A stretch of DNA of 44,212 bases, from positions 1 through 44,212 of the forward strand of contig JAKJEQ010000002.1 of NCBI GenBank assembly GCA_022705345.1, written 5' to 3'. Below are positions 37,050 to 42,275 of the stretch, piece after piece (position 1 is the first letter of the stretch; every line of letters begins with the position of its first letter). A model generated the notes under the pieces. That model made no database searches. It saw only the letters and a program-made list of their open reading frames with translations, and had not been told where the DNA came from. This stretch comes from Planctomycetota bacterium. Its GTDB lineage: Bacteria > Planctomycetota > Phycisphaerae > Sedimentisphaerales > UBA12454. The translations under genes were made by a program, and so were the position numbers.

Positions 37050-37919
37050 CTACTTTTTAAATTTAATATGACAAATCACTGCCAGCGACCACAGGATATC
37101 AGCGGAGGCAATGAGTTTCGTTTCGTATTTTTCGTTAATCGGGATAAGATGAACGGAGGAACCGTCCATCCTTACCAGCTTGCAAGTTACGCCAATGGCG
37201 TTGTTTATGCGAACTACAGCGGGCATTCCTTCGACGGCGGCAACAGACGGGCTGACAATAACTATGTCGCCATCGTTAATCTGCGGGGCCATACTGTCGC
37301 CATCGACCTGCAAGGCAAAACTATCAGGGAAAAGATCGTGAATCTCGCTGCATTCGACAAATTGAGTGACCTCAAGATCATTGGCGGCAGTTATTGAGTT
37401 TATGACCGAAGCGTTCAGATGGCTGCTGACCAGTTGCTCGATTTGCGTTTCGACGAGTTTTGAATCGGTGCCTATTGCCTTGCTCCACAGGCCGGCAATG
37501 CCGGCGGCAGTTCGGCCGAGAACGGGAATCCAGCCGTTTCTCGTGGAACTTTTTGGTTTTAGCCGAGATTCAAGGGCGGATTTTTCTTCCAGCAACGTCA
37601 GAAATGCGGAAATTGCGTTGGCAGATTGCGGCTGCGAAAGGAGGATTTTCTGGGTTTTTTCGATAATTTTGAGGTTTTCGCCAGAAACATCCCCCGCACC
37701 TGATTTTCGGCCGGTTAAAAGCCAGTTCAGGTCGATGCCTGCAATTTGGGAGATTTTTATTAATATGGGCACCGGCGCAAGGCGGTCTTTTTCATAATAA
37801 CTGTACGTAGAGGGACTTAGGCCAAGCAATTTGGCGAATTTGTTTCGGCCGCGCACGCCGGCTGTCGAAGTTCGGACCTCGATAATCCTCTGTATTATGC
37901 TATTTTCGAGTTCATCCAT
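37050..37919 (-). CDS. CI/LexA-type repressor: XRE-family HTH + S24 peptidase domain
   Basis: FAKLLGLSPSTYSYYEKDRLAPVPILIKISQIAGIDLNWLLTG is an HTH_XRE motif. The C-terminal LQVDGDSMAPQINDGDIVIV....VTCKLV carries the S24 Ser/Lys dyad context. The start is set at the internal MDELEN (37919), not the hydrophobic upstream extension. Confidence 0.8.
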   Translation of the reverse strand: MDELENSIIQRIIEVRTSTAGVRGRNKFAKLLGLSPSTYSYYEKDRLAPVPILIKISQIAGIDLNWLLTGRKSGAGDVSGENLKIIEKTQKILLSQPQSANAISAFLTLLEEKSALESRLKPKSSTRNGWIPVLGRTAAGIAGLWSKAIGTDSKLVETQIEQLVSSHLNASVINSITAANDLEVTQFVECSEIHDLFPDSFALQVDGDSMAPQINDGDIVIVSPSVAAVEGMPAVVRINNAIGVTCKLVRMDGSSVHLIPINEKYETKLIASADILWSLAVICHIKFKK

Positions 37920-38048
37920 AAAAAATATTCGCTTATGCGAAGTTTTCTCTTGCAATATTCGCAAATGCGTATAAAACAAGACTGAAATGTGTAATATTTC
38001 TAAGAATAATAACACAAAAAGGGATAATAGTCAAGGAGCGTTATCAAA

Positions 38049-38364: not shown

Positions 38365-38495
38365 CAGAAAAAGTGCAAAAAAAAGGTGGGGAAAAAGTGC
38401 GAAATTAGCGAAAAAAAGTGCGAAAAAAGCGGAAATAAGTGGTGTAAAAGTATCTGAAAAGTGGGTGAAAAGACGGAAAAAGTGTAAAAATAGAA
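38365..38495 (+). repeat. Iteron-like array: six degenerate direct repeats with ~21-bp period (core GAAAAAGTGYRAAA)
   Basis: AAGTG cores start at 38371, 38395, 38416, 38437, 38459 and 38480, giving spacings of 24, 21, 21, 22 and 21 nt. They are embedded in A-tracts. The ORFs called here are low-complexity artefacts. Confidence 0.6.
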
Positions 38496-38628
38496 ACAAT
38501 TCATTATCTCAAATTACTGGTATATTGTAACTTAAAATTATCTGGAAAGCAAGAGAAATAGTTGATCAGTTCCGCCTGAGGCGGATAAATGTCAGTTGTC
38601 ATTATCGATAAAATATTGAGATTTTTGG

Positions 38629-38656
38629 TTGAATTTGGTTTTTATAATAATATAAT
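38629..38656 (+). promoter_or_regulatory. Candidate sigma-70-type promoter for the four-gene operon
   Basis: TTGAAT (38629-38634), a 16-nt spacer, then TATAAT (38651-38656). It ends ~90 nt upstream of the first gene. Pattern match only. Confidence 0.3.
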
Positions 38657-38744
38657 GCGTAATGAGGTAAATTGTTATGGATGAACAAAATCGTACCCTT
38701 AAGGTATTTATTTCGTAATAATAATTCAATATGAGGGAAAATCT

Positions 38745-39311
38745 ATGTCTAAAATTTCAAGTAGAAATATGTTACTTTTGATGCTTGGAATTGCTAAAAA
38801 ACCAAAGATTGTGGGTGAAGGAATCAATGGTATTACACGCCTGCAAAAACTACTGTTTTTATTGGAAAAAGAAGGTTTAATTAAAAAAGTAGAAGGAGGT
38901 TATCAGTTTCAAGCATATAAAGCAGGCCCATATTCTCCTACACTATATGATGATTTAGAATTTTTAGAAAATCTTGGTTTTATTAAAAGTGAGGTTTCTG
39001 GCACTGCAACTGAAGAAGAAGCTGCTGACATGGATTTTACATTTGAAGAATTAATGGATGAAGAAGTAAAAACAGCGGACGTGTACGATGAGAAACGTTT
39101 TACTTTGACTGAACAAGGGCAAAACAAAGTTAAAACTTTGATTGAATCAACTGATTATGAACCATTAATTGAAGGAATTAGAAAAATAAAATCAAAATAT
39201 GGTGATTATTCTTTGGATGATTTGCTTTATTATGTTTATACCAAATACCCTGAAATGACTACCGAATCAGAAATTAAAGATCATGTCCTACGTAAAGGGC
39301 GGAAAAGGTGA
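38745..39311 (+). CDS. Panacea/DUF4065 (SocA/GepA-like) domain protein, possible antitoxin/regulator
   Basis: 188 aa. GITRLQKLLFLLEKEG....YQFQAYKAGPYSPTLYDDLEFL matches the Panacea pattern (T.LKLQKLLY ... F.AW..GPV.P.lY) recalled from the family. RBS GAGGGA. AT-rich codon usage. Confidence 0.55.
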   Translation: MSKISSRNMLLLMLGIAKKPKIVGEGINGITRLQKLLFLLEKEGLIKKVEGGYQFQAYKAGPYSPTLYDDLEFLENLGFIKSEVSGTATEEEAADMDFTFEELMDEEVKTADVYDEKRFTLTEQGQNKVKTLIESTDYEPLIEGIRKIKSKYGDYSLDDLLYYVYTKYPEMTTESEIKDHVLRKGRKR

Positions 39312-39913
39312 CAAAAACTTTACTGGAATGGTCGTTAGGTGGTCATGTTGCGATTATTGTAGTTGCATTGACTTTTTACAAATTTGTCTTTTCAGAAATA
39401 GCTGAAAATGTCTTAGAAAAAGGGAAGATGATCGCCAAAAAAATCGAAGCAAAGATATTTTTGGAACTATCTATAGTTTTGAAACCTTTTCTCGACAAGG
39501 AACGCACTAGTTCAATTATCATAGTAAGCCAATGGAATATTGATAGTGAAGAATACAAGGAGCAATGTATAGATATCCAAGGGACTGAACAATACAAAAA
39601 TGCAATCCATGATTTTATAAAGAGTAATACGAATCCGATGTTAGATTTTAGATTTCTCAAAATAAAAATAGATAGATGCCTTTTTTGGAAACGCTACTTA
39701 AAAAAATCTGTAACAATACTTGTTGGTTTCCATTTGTTAATTGTAGCGTTTGAAGTTGTTTGCAAGATATACGGAATCTGTAGTGATAATAAATTAGTTT
39801 TGGTTGTTTTAATTTTGTCATCATTTTTGACGATTGCAAATTGCTTTTTTCCACTTTGGCCAATTAGCCATTACAATGATGATATAGAAGACATTGAAAG
39901 ACTCTATGCTTGA
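39308..39913 (+). CDS. Small membrane protein (one N-terminal and two C-terminal TM helices), no known family recognised
   Basis: 201 aa. The GTG start overlaps the upstream stop (GTGA). TM segments are HVAIIVVALTFYKFVF, VTILVGFHLLIVAFEVVCKIYGI and LVLVVLILSSFLTIANCFFPLW. Confidence 0.6.
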   Translation: MTKTLLEWSLGGHVAIIVVALTFYKFVFSEIAENVLEKGKMIAKKIEAKIFLELSIVLKPFLDKERTSSIIIVSQWNIDSEEYKEQCIDIQGTEQYKNAIHDFIKSNTNPMLDFRFLKIKIDRCLFWKRYLKKSVTILVGFHLLIVAFEVVCKIYGICSDNKLVLVVLILSSFLTIANCFFPLWPISHYNDDIEDIERLYA

Positions 39914-40322
39914 TTTAACAAAAGAAGCGTCGTTGTTACAACCAGTAACAGGTTATATAAAAAGAAAAGGATTCAATGTACAAGGAACAGAAATTCCATT
40001 CTACAATCGAAGCGTTGACATATACGGTTTTTCCAAAAAAACAAATAAAACAATAGCTATTGAATTGAAACTGAATAAGTGGAAGAAAGCCTTTTCACAA
40101 GCAGTCATTTATCAGTTGTGTGCTGACGAATCTTACATTGCGATGCCACATAAATATACTATACGAGTAGATAGAAATTTACTAATAACTTTTGGAATCG
40201 GATTAATCGCAGTAAATGATATTGGCAGGTGCTTCAAAATGATTGAAGCACGCCAATCGTCAGTTGTCAAAAACTATTATAAAAAAAATCATATCGAATT
40301 TCTTAAAAGGTTGGAAAAATGA
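39906..40322 (+). CDS. Small PD-(D/E)xK nuclease-fold protein
   Basis: SVDIYGFS....KTIAIELKLNKWKKAFSQAVIYQ...ESYIAMP fits the hhhD-x(10-15)-hhhExK core with the following helix and strand. The ATG at 39906 overlaps the upstream stop by 8 nt (the track start at 39894 is a TTG). Confidence 0.5.
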   Translation: MLDLTKEASLLQPVTGYIKRKGFNVQGTEIPFYNRSVDIYGFSKKTNKTIAIELKLNKWKKAFSQAVIYQLCADESYIAMPHKYTIRVDRNLLITFGIGLIAVNDIGRCFKMIEARQSSVVKNYYKKNHIEFLKRLEK

Positions 40323-41635
40323 GTAATAAGCCACAACTTATCATTCGAATGGGAAGTCATGCCGAAAAAGAATACATTATGAAATTAAATCATAAAGTTT
40401 TCGATGGAATTGTAATTGGGGCTAACGTAGTGGAAGCAACAGCAGGTGCTACTGCTAGTTTGATTGGTAAAAAATTGAATTTACCTTATTATATCGATCC
40501 AATGACTTATGTTTTCGGTTGTGATCTAGATGGCATCAAATCAGAACAAAAAAAAATGATTCAAGGAAAAAAGAAAACAGTAAGAGATTACAAGCGGTCA
40601 TATTTAGGATTAGCTGATGAATTAGGATATGTATTTGTAAATGCACTAAAAACTGATACATGTATTCAGCCGGACATTTTCAATCCGGCAACTATAAAAA
40701 GAACTTGTCAAAACGTTATAGAATATCAACGCAATAGAATTGTTGAGGAATTTAAGAAAGATGAAGAATATGAAGAATATGCAGATGCAATTAAACCACC
40801 TGCTGGAATTTTTTCGCCATATTTCTATGTGAATAACAGAAGAAGTTTTGAATTATTTCTAGAATTAGCTCATGCAACAACAATAATAGAAACAAATTTA
40901 CCTGTTTATTCTGTTTTATGTGCAGATGTAAATTCATTAAACGATGAATCGTTCATCGAAAAAGTTTTAGAAGAAGTCCCTAAAACAGGTATCTACGGTG
41001 TATGGCTTTGGTTTTCAAAATTTGATGAATTCGAATCAAATATGAAGACGCTCAGAAATTTCAAAAATTTAGTTCATGGATTAAGTAAAAATGGCTTAGC
41101 TGTTTTTAACAGACATGGGGGATATTTTAGTATGGTTTTAAATAAATTGGGTATGACCGGCATAAGTCATGGTATTGGTTATGGAGAAAAAAAAGACGTA
41201 TTTCAAATAGAAGGCCCTCCCAATGCTCCAGTCGTACAATATTATTTACCCGATTTGTTTAAAAGATTTGGGATTGATAACATCGAAAGATGTTTCGACG
41301 AATTAGGCGTTACAAAGCCCCAACATTTTCATAATTCTATTTGCGATTGTGTTATATGTAAAGGAGTTATTAAAAATAATATTTCTGAATTTAGAGAATT
41401 TGGAGAAACACATTATGCCAGACTTGAATCTAAAAGAGAAACTCAAACTCCAGCAGCTGCTAAACGCAGCCGTTTCCATTTTTTGATGAACAGAATTAAA
41501 GAAAAAAATTTTATTAATAAAAGCAACTTGAAAGAGATTATTGAAAAGATGCAAGAGTCACAAGAAAAATGGGAAGATCTTGACTCAGTTATCCATTTCA
41601 ATTATTTAGATAATTGGATCAATTCTCTTAATTAA
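40319..41635 (+). CDS. 438-aa protein with a TGT/DpdA-type zinc motif (CxCxxC...H) and an alternating beta/alpha (TIM-barrel-like) pattern; function unknown
   Basis: The ORF itself is solid (the ATGA overlap couples it to the previous gene). NSICDCVICKG....RSRFHFLMNRIKEK resembles the CDCxxC...H-hydrophobic helix of tRNA-guanine/archaeosine transglycosylases. The confidence value refers to this functional family call. Confidence 0.4.
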   Translation: MSNKPQLIIRMGSHAEKEYIMKLNHKVFDGIVIGANVVEATAGATASLIGKKLNLPYYIDPMTYVFGCDLDGIKSEQKKMIQGKKKTVRDYKRSYLGLADELGYVFVNALKTDTCIQPDIFNPATIKRTCQNVIEYQRNRIVEEFKKDEEYEEYADAIKPPAGIFSPYFYVNNRRSFELFLELAHATTIIETNLPVYSVLCADVNSLNDESFIEKVLEEVPKTGIYGVWLWFSKFDEFESNMKTLRNFKNLVHGLSKNGLAVFNRHGGYFSMVLNKLGMTGISHGIGYGEKKDVFQIEGPPNAPVVQYYLPDLFKRFGIDNIERCFDELGVTKPQHFHNSICDCVICKGVIKNNISEFREFGETHYARLESKRETQTPAAAKRSRFHFLMNRIKEKNFINKSNLKEIIEKMQESQEKWEDLDSVIHFNYLDNWINSLN

Positions 41636-41750
41636 TAAAAAAAACTAATTAAAGAATCTTACAAAGCTATCTTTGATTCTGCCCAAAAAAAATAGCAATA
41701 CGAATTTTTCCAAGAGGATGCTTAACGGCAAAGCTCACCCTACTAAATCC

Positions 41751-41808: not shown

Positions 41809-41816
41809 GAAACACA

Positions 41817-41901
41817 AATAAAAAAGGGCGAACTCCGATTAGATACTTGCAGATTCTTCAAAGAAGCTAATCGACGTATCTAACGGGGCAAGCATATCGG
41901 A
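41817..41901 (+). repeat. ~85-bp direct repeat, copy 1 (contains a 13-bp-stem hairpin)
   Basis: AAATAAAAAAGGGCGAACTCCGATTAGATACTTGCAGATTCTTCAAAGAAGCTAATCGACGTATCTAACGGGGCAAGCATATCGGA. The arms CCGATTAGATAC / GTATCTAACGG pair. Confidence 0.8.
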
Positions 41902-42082
41902 CAAATGAAGATTGACCCATTCGGCTTCGCTCAGGACGGGGATTGAAGATTTGAGAACCGGTAAGATTTGGTATTTTTCAGCGTTGATTTTTTATGGAGG
42001 CCGGATCCTTCGACTCCGCTGCGCTTCGCTCAGGATGACAAAGGGCAGGCGGGGCAGGCATAAAACTAATATCAAAATTTAA

Positions 42083-42166
42083 AATAAAAAGGGCGAACCC
42101 CGATTAGATACTTGCAGATTCTTCAACGAAGCTAATCGACGTATCTAACGGGGCAAGCATATCGGA
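42083..42166 (+). repeat. ~85-bp direct repeat, copy 2 (a third, truncated copy lies at 42217-42244)
   Basis: Near-identical to 41817-41901, with a few substitutions and one missing A. AAAAAAAAAGGGCGAACCCCGATTAGAT recurs at 42217-42244. Confidence 0.8.
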
Positions 42167-42275
42167 AAAGCAGGCAATACGAATTTTAAATTTGAAATTG
42201 AGATTTCAAAATTCAGAAAAAAAAAGGGCGAACCCCGATTAGATTTCTTTAAAAACGTTGACTGATCTTCGAGAT

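Follow-up and report, generated by a model that had tools for sequence, protein, structure and literature searches.

A conserved four-gene cassette in a Planctomycetota bacterium and other prokaryotes couples a predicted minimal PD-(D/E)xK nuclease to a TIM-barrel protein

Four overlapping, translationally coupled genes, here called g1 to g4, lie on the plus strand of a 44,212-nucleotide stretch of DNA from a Planctomycetota bacterium (assembly GCA_022705345.1, contig JAKJEQ010000002.1, positions 1 to 44,212), which is referred to below as the window. They encode a 188-residue protein with a divergent Panacea-like (SocA/DUF4065) domain (g1, 38745..39311), a 201-residue protein with three predicted membrane helices at about residues 5-23, 134-152 and 163-181 (g2, 39308..39913), a 138-residue predicted MmcB-like minimal PD-(D/E)xK nuclease (g3, 39906..40322) and a 438-residue TIM barrel with a zinc-knuckle motif (g4, 40319..41635). 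Successive genes overlap by GTGA between g1 and g2 (39308-39311), by 8 nucleotides (ATGCTTGA, 39906-39913) in which the g2 stop lies over the g3 start, and by the ATGA that joins the g3 stop to the g4 start (40319-40322). In the composition profile of the window, the cassette occupies a low-GC island (38450..41650) with a GC content of about 0.28-0.34 against 0.40-0.57 in the flanks. A sequence-only reading of this DNA had proposed that g3 is a PD-(D/E)xK nuclease coupled to a "TGT-like" gene, TGT standing for tRNA-guanine transglycosylase, and had read the ATGA overlap correctly. The coupling of these two genes proved to be real; that they form a two-gene unit did not hold, as two further genes of the cassette, which had been missed, precede the pair. 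From evidence that is comparative throughout, we rate the cassette as a multi-gene defence or toxin-antitoxin-type system with a PD-(D/E)xK effector, built from a combination of parts that is undescribed.

The g3 open reading frame (ORF) runs from ATG at 39906 to TGA at 40320-40322. An in-frame TTG at 39894, 5' of this ATG, would extend the protein to 142 residues; since the homologues begin M[IL]D[LI]TKE, the ATG at 39906 is favoured as the start. The protein was modelled with AlphaFold2 on a 40-sequence alignment, giving a predicted local distance difference test score (pLDDT) of 90.2 and a predicted template modelling score of 0.85. The order of elements in the model is helix 7-20, strands 24-30, 35-43 and 48-54, helix 59-69 and strand 75-81, exactly the alpha-beta-beta-beta-alpha-beta core that the sequence-only reading had claimed. 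D38 of SVDIYGF lies on strand 2, E53 and K55 of IAIELK lie on strand 3, WKKAFSQAVIYQ forms the helix that follows and SYIAMP forms the next strand, so that the residues named in that reading are borne out. A Foldseek search of the PDB returned 3dnx (SPO1766) as the top match (E 1.2e-6, TM 0.69), which we take to be the structure of Pfam's MmcB-like family (PF06319). EndoMS/NucS, PaqCI, HindIII, a "restriction endonuclease-like fold" protein, Hjc and tRNA-splicing endonucleases came next, so that two of the nuclease types to which the earlier reading had pointed for comparison, Hjc and MmcB, are found among the structural relatives.

Residue conservation was counted over 150 representatives at 26-63% identity, only three of which fall outside 27-49%. 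E7 was kept in 130/130, E29 in 135/143, D38 and E53 in 149/150 each, K55 in 148/150, W59 in 148/149 and Q65 in 147/148. The acidic and lysine residues, whose conservation had been expected, are thus retained together with Q65 at 94-100%, in proteins where g3 is fused to g4 as well, and E7, E29, D38, E53, K55 and Q65 are candidate catalytic residues. The core fold and the conserved Asp and ExK are both present, and g3 is confirmed as a member of the PD-(D/E)xK (restriction-endonuclease-like) superfamily; the nuclease observation stands on these two grounds. On the basis of the model and the alignment, g3 is predicted to be an active MmcB-like PD-(D/E)xK endonuclease. Other systems contain PD-(D/E)xK domains that are inactive, and g3 could by analogy be a degenerate, non-catalytic domain that serves g4 as a structural or DNA-binding subunit. 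However, retention of the six candidate residues across such divergent sequences, fusion proteins included, makes this extremely improbable.

The g3 family is large and poorly covered by curated libraries. Besides 40 close homologues, an exhaustive profile search gave 1475 clusters at E<=1e-3 and 258 at E<=1e-10. The window protein had no significant match in Pfam, NCBIfam, PADLOC, PHROGs or the PDB sequences, the only library traces being NucS (E 0.17) and phrog_12193 (E 5e-5). Weak Pfam matches among its 150 relatives all fell in PD-(D/E)xK families, namely REase_MTES_1575 (23 relatives), MmcB-like (6, best E 3.5e-6), UPF0102, HSDR_N_2, Hjc and NucS_C, and one relative was labelled "MmcB-like (weak)". 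When the broad family profile was compared with the PDB, 3dnx was recovered at E 0.01 with the helix-1, strand-1 Glu, Asp and ExK segments aligned. A chance ORF was also considered for g3, and was ruled out because of the residue conservation.

Among characterized proteins, g3 most resembles the MmcB-like family (PF06319), which likewise consists of stand-alone PD-(D/E)xK proteins of about 140-150 residues and provides the best structural match, but the window protein stays below the PF06319 gathering score. MmcB is an SOS-regulated repair gene without g4-like, Panacea or membrane-protein partners, whereas the g3 family is operon-locked to g4. Hjc, the C-terminal domain of NucS/EndoMS, REase_MTES_1575 and UPF0102/YraN have the core fold and the placement of catalytic residues in common with g3; the g3 scores to these families are weak, however, and they are structure- or mismatch-specific housekeeping enzymes. 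No evidence for a junction or mismatch substrate of g3 was found in this analysis.

Context look-ups of g3 and g4 homologues revealed g1, g2, g3 and g4 in constant order and overlapping across unrelated genomic contexts, with sizes of about 190, 200, 140 and 440-450 residues, while the flanking genes differ between loci. Linkage was counted by running hidden Markov models (HMMs) of the four proteins over all fetched loci. There were 58 non-redundant g4 loci, 54 of which have at least 450 nucleotides of upstream sequence, and g3 is directly 5' of g4 or fused to it in 53 of these 54; the sole locus without g3 is a disrupted cassette (L051). Among the 51 loci with at least 1700 upstream nucleotides, g1 is present in 48 and an HMM-recognizable g2 in 42. 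Natural g3-g4 fusions occur in P0287 (557 residues) and P0289 (560 residues), with the nuclease N-terminal and the TIM barrel C-terminal. P0287, which has entries in 92 blocks of the collection, is encoded at L066 5001-6674, where g1 and a membrane ORF lie ahead of it. The arrangement of g1, a variable ORF, g3 and g4 also holds for a second g3 subfamily, whose identity to the window protein is about 30-35%. Linkage and fusion together are strong evidence that g3 and g4 physically act together, and g3 is an obligate partner of g4, in some lineages as one polypeptide.

Several imperfect copies were also seen. In P0182 (252 residues), a complete g3 continues in frame into about the first 100 residues of g4, which is probably a frameshift or contig-end artefact and not a true fusion. 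At L051 (1-6513), g1 and a g2 fragment are about 5 kb away from a g4 fragment; at L035 (5581-5995), g3 is broken into two ORFs; and at L045 (5965-7340), g4 is split and g3 intact. These three are decayed copies of the cassette, and could be pseudogenes or assembly errors.

A species-level scan of 185,579 species, with one genome each, yielded 42 loci, all of them in metagenome-assembled genomes. The cassette was found in Planctomycetota, Acidobacteriota, Gemmatimonadota, Gammaproteobacteria, Latescibacterota, Bdellovibrionales and Ignavibacteriales and in two archaea. All four proteins are called "hypothetical" wherever they are named, save for one g1 homologue labelled DUF4065. Neither g2, g3 nor g4 had a significant match in PADLOC-DB v2.0.0 (2023), and searches of the open-access literature gave no account of this gene combination, although a recent description elsewhere is possible.

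The AlphaFold2 model of g4 is a (beta/alpha)8 TIM barrel with a pLDDT of 92.6. Its top Foldseek match was archaeosine TGT (ArcTGT, 1iq8), with E 4e-4, a query-normalized TM score of 0.48 and 463 aligned columns; the others, among the matches listed, were generic TIM barrels with query-normalized TM scores of 0.35 or less, and DpdA (7ui4) appeared at rank 24. TGT enzymes have a hallmark zinc site, CxCx2Cx22-25H, whose Cys residues lie in the insertion between strand 8 and helix 8 and whose His lies in helix 8 (PMC10164549). In g4, C342, C344 and C347 are present in 29/30 sequences and H387 in 30/30. The Cys triad sits between strand 8 (279-285) and a long helix (378-401), which holds H387. Between the Cys triad and the His (CxCx2Cx23-39H), the window protein has a spacing of x39, whereas that of the fusions, x23, is close to the x22-25 of TGT and DpdA. 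This Cys3His motif fits a predicted zinc site with TGT/DpdA topology. A g4 homologue on Arthrobacter sp. AK-1 plasmid pSI-1 (L061, NC_010494.1, 4926-6155) has no CxCxxC triad and keeps D60, E290 and the equivalent of H387; the site would thus be dispensable in at least one lineage.

TGT catalysis relies on three Asp residues, which are a general acid that ends strand 3 and is followed by an aromatic residue at +4, a base-recognition Asp and a nucleophile at the end of strand 8 (PMC10164549). At the end of strand 3, g4 carries D60-P-M-T-Y64, with D60 in 28/30 sequences and Y64 at +4. After strand 8, g4 has Glu290, a residue that neither the second subfamily nor the fusions retain. E237, after strand 6, is the most conserved carboxylate besides D60, and W433 is also conserved. 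Judged from sequence and secondary structure, one of the three TGT-invariant Asp residues has a plausible counterpart in g4 (D60), whereas no counterpart of the base-recognition Asp was found and that of the nucleophile is not conserved. A glycoside hydrolase of clan GH-A was considered for g4 and rejected, as the conserved carboxylates follow strands 3, 6 and 8, not 4 and 7.

Sequence comparisons gave little for g4. Pfam TGT (PF01702) matched none of 47 members, and hhalign reached probabilities of 0.7% with E. coli Tgt and 5.8% with an alignment of 7 bacterial TGT sequences, in the Cys-motif region only. There was no significant match in Pfam, NCBIfam, PHROGs or PADLOC, the last with Cmr5 (E 0.18) as its sole trace, and no sequence or profile match in the PDB. 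Among viral predicted structures, the Foldseek matches were generic TIM barrels and a phage TGT came no higher than rank 50, and a scan of viral contigs for DpdA/TGT diversity with E. coli Tgt as query recovered near-identical tgt genes only. The label "TGT-like" from the sequence-only reading is therefore upheld in part: the barrel, the ArcTGT match and the Cys3His motif speak for it, but no Pfam or hhalign signal and one retained Asp out of three speak against it. We regard it as a reasonable structural lead towards a protein with a remodelled active site, not as established membership; g4 is possibly a very divergent enzyme of the TGT superfamily.

TGT-family enzymes are already known in defence, as DpdA, the DNA preQ0 insertase of the Dpd system, and as Cap10 of type IV CBASS (cyclic oligonucleotide-based antiphage signalling system). 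Compared with the superfamily as a whole (tRNA TGTs, DpdA and Cap10), g4 shares the barrel, the large insertion after strand 8 pinned by a putative CxCx2Cx(n)H site and the Asp-x3-aromatic motif after strand 3, but differs in its lack of significant profile similarity and in the two Asp positions. Its cassette lacks the Cap9 and CD-NTase partners of Cap10. The Dpd system needs dpdA, dpdB, dpdC, the dpdD-K helicase/nuclease genes and preQ0 synthesis genes, none of which is matched by the four cassette genes.

One explanation for the g3-g4 pair, put forward by the sequence-only reading, is restriction-modification by base exchange, in which g4, in the manner of DpdA, would mark host DNA by replacing a guanine or another base with a modified one, and g3 would cut DNA that is unmarked or carries a foreign mark. 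A TGT as the best solved structural match of g4, with DpdA also in the list, is in line with this, as are the topology of the zinc motif, the resemblance of D60-x3-Y64 to Asp95 and Phe99 of DpdA and the tight, sometimes fused, linkage of the two genes. However, the explanation sits poorly with the lack of a TGT profile signal, with a nucleophile position whose Glu is absent from the fusions and the second subfamily, and with the lack of an identified base-recognition Asp. The cassette carries no genes for the synthesis of preQ0 or another base, no DpdB- or DpdC-like partners and no specificity domain in g3, and the conserved g1 and g2 are left unexplained. Under strict protection of self, moreover, an intact g3 beside a split g4, as at L045, would be lethal unless the split is a sequencing error. 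No specific support for restriction-modification was found in this analysis, and we judge base exchange quite unlikely.

The first half of the cassette adds a different kind of component. The window g1 protein aligned across the whole Panacea domain (PF13274) at 23.5 bits, and full-domain alignments of 18-25.6 bits were obtained for the window protein and 7/10 homologues, the Pfam cut-off being 25.7. In PADLOC, g1 matched only the N-terminal 60 residues of PDC-M19A (E 7e-14) and a type I S-subunit model, and its matches to DarG and SocA were weak; sequence and profile searches of the PDB gave nothing significant. The DUF4065 annotation mentioned above belongs to the g1 homologue from Haloarcula. 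With 56-80% identity among homologues, g1 is the most conserved gene of the cassette, whereas g2 is the fastest evolving (20-28%). No family match was found for g2 in the Pfam, NCBIfam, PADLOC and PHROGs libraries. A hydropathy scan found 3 or 4 hydrophobic segments above threshold in 8/8 g2 homologues, with an N-terminal segment and a C-terminal pair common to all.

Panacea antitoxins bind their toxins directly and so neutralize a wide range of them, including some that disrupt membranes, and the antitoxin is usually encoded by the first gene (PMC8832971). With a Panacea-type protein and a membrane protein as its first half, the cassette looks more like a defence or toxin-antitoxin system under regulation. 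It could accordingly be read as a Panacea toxin-antitoxin or addiction module, in which g1 neutralizes a membrane toxin g2, g3 or both, and which persists selfishly with no dedicated anti-phage role. The g1 gene is first and its product aligns with the full Panacea domain, validated PanT toxins include membrane-spanning depolarizing proteins (PMC8832971), and the cassette is found on plasmids and beside other toxin-antitoxin pairs. The PanAT survey left out operons of more than three genes and would have missed this cassette. On the other hand, the invariant core is the g3-g4 pair with g1, not g2, which is absent or replaced in distant versions, and a conserved 438-residue enzyme would be an unusual accessory gene. 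Toxin-antitoxin and defence roles are also not mutually exclusive. We hold a pure addiction module to be unlikely. In layout, the cassette resembles validated membrane-targeting PanT pairs in having the Panacea-like gene first and a membrane protein next, but PanAT is an operon of two or at most three genes, whereas this is a conserved four-gene operon with a nuclease and a TIM-barrel enzyme, and g2, at about 200 residues with three helices and a soluble domain, is not a small peptide toxin. The cassette corresponds neither to the Dpd system nor to a two-gene PanAT pair, and PADLOC-DB v2.0.0 contains no system that it matches.

The cassette is horizontally mobile, as seen from its low-GC island, its unrelated contexts and its presence on plasmids and viral contigs. 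Arthrobacter sp. AK-1 plasmid pSI-1 bears a distant version with genes for 184, 200, 148 and 409 residues. A second distant version, on a plasmid of Haloarcula sp. JP-L23 (L060, CP050019.1, 1-8711), has a gene for a DUF4065 protein followed by g3 and g4; neither g2 nor another membrane gene lies between g1 and g3. This Haloarcula cassette directly follows an N-6 DNA methylase whose coding sequence spans about 4.3 kb of the record, and is followed by genes for a 405-residue Cys-rich protein and a 271-residue membrane protein, with a PAPS-reductase-family gene nearby. Cassette sequence is carried by three IMG/VR viral contigs. Two of these (L074 and L075, 62-73 kb) hold the whole cassette, closely similar to those at L010/L011 from the same sample series; on the third, g3 is accompanied by no more of g4 than its first ~40 residues. 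A tblastn search with g4 against 50,697 phage records gave no match.

Neighbours were identified by PADLOC and Pfam within about 9 kb of the cassette. Defence genes are frequent among them and include a retron type VI-like reverse transcriptase, which lies just 5' of the cassette at L010/L011 (1535-2560, PADLOC E 4e-57), a type III restriction-modification pair with a Ppl/LmuB-like ATPase, and type II restriction enzymes. A TIR protein, DUF4238, MazE-PIN, HigB and HipA toxin-antitoxin pairs and insertion sequence elements were also present. At L010/L011, a DDE transposase is likewise located upstream, and many small prophage-like genes follow the cassette.

This setting bears on the possibility that the cassette is a DNA-repair module, in which an MmcB-like nuclease and a base-excising TIM barrel would process bulky or cross-linked lesions. 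The closest structural relative of g3, 3DNX, presumably belongs to the MmcB-like family. In Caulobacter, MmcB itself is a PD-(D/E)xK endonuclease under SOS control that gives protection against mitomycin C (PMC9578287). Next to the cassette in the window is a divergently transcribed gene (37050-38015, minus strand) for a 321-residue LexA/CI-like protein with helix-turn-helix (HTH) and S24 peptidase domains (HTH_3 E 2e-6, Peptidase_S24 E 9e-17). However, this S24 neighbour is not conserved at other cassette loci, and a Panacea protein and a membrane protein would be unexpected in a repair pathway. The sporadic and rare distribution, low GC, horizontal transfer, carriage on plasmids and prophages and defence-island context also argue against repair, which we consider very unlikely.

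Our preferred reading, held with about even confidence, is that g3 serves as the nuclease of a new four-gene conflict system, in which it acts with g4; the operon would be an undescribed anti-mobile-element defence or toxin-antitoxin-like system. In such a system, g4 would provide target recognition by engaging a nucleotide or base in the barrel pocket, and might excise or exchange the engaged base, as TGT-family enzymes do. In complex with g4, g3 would cleave nucleic acid at the engaged site. The g1 protein may act as a direct neutralizer or adaptor that silences the toxic parts, like other Panacea proteins, and g2 may be either an infection sensor at the membrane or a second effector that disrupts it. 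A more specific proposal is that g4, as a highly divergent member of the TGT superfamily, flips out and then excises or exchanges a base of the invader, such as a hypermodified phage base or a tRNA base, and that this licenses g3 cleavage under the gating of the Panacea protein and the membrane sensor. This proposal is speculative, and we think it doubtful.

Several observations weigh against the reading of a conflict system. The g4 protein has no significant sequence relationship to any characterized family, and its chemistry is for this reason a guess. None of the g1 copies tested reaches the Pfam cut-off. Some distant versions, among them the one on the Haloarcula plasmid, lack g2 or have another ORF in its place, and g2 may therefore lie outside the core mechanism. 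The cassette is rare, as the species-level count above indicates. At least three contexts (L012, L063 and L006) have no defence neighbour, and the association with defence genes is a raw listing that was not scored against a background rate.

Other features of the window surround the cassette. A promoter-like site on the plus strand (38629..38656, TTGAAT-16-TATAAT, 10/12 consensus matches) lies about 90 nucleotides 5' of g1 and is a candidate promoter by its consensus match alone; promoter-like sites in the region were not above shuffled expectation in this consensus scan. Further upstream of g1, just beyond the low-GC island, are A-rich direct repeats of about 21 nucleotides (AAAAAGTGCGAAA..., 38368-38433), which might be operator or promoter-region repeats. 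On the 3' side, the spacer between g4 and a minus-strand pyruvate:ferredoxin-oxidoreductase-like ORF, identified by eye, is occupied by a repeated hairpin with a U-run on the minus strand (41816-41904, 42081-42169 and 42217-42244). It comprises two full 89-nucleotide copies that are 94% alike and one partial copy; the window has 3 occurrences of its 19-nucleotide core, where 0 would be expected, and the hairpin matches no Rfam family. The hairpins look like a duplicated terminator-like element. Rfam had no match in the island or its flanks. The window sequence is present in anaerobic-digester and wastewater metagenomes. A single low-depth metatranscriptome contig spans only the 5' part of g1, by which expression is not established.

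The g3 and g4 proteins match no curated family, yet the pair is conserved from Planctomycetes to haloarchaea. Since Arthrobacter sp. AK-1 (pSI-1) and Haloarcula sp. JP-L23 are cultured, the cassette can be tested directly. If it is a defence system, a minimal PD-(D/E)xK nuclease and a TGT-like barrel would form a new effector pairing, the TGT fold would be in wider use than in tRNA modification, Dpd and CBASS Cap10, and Panacea domains would control multi-enzyme systems, not single toxins. Should the proposal that g4 acts on an invader base to license g3 be true, the cassette would embody a base-excision-coupled restriction mechanism and a new class of immune system, in bacteria as well as archaea.

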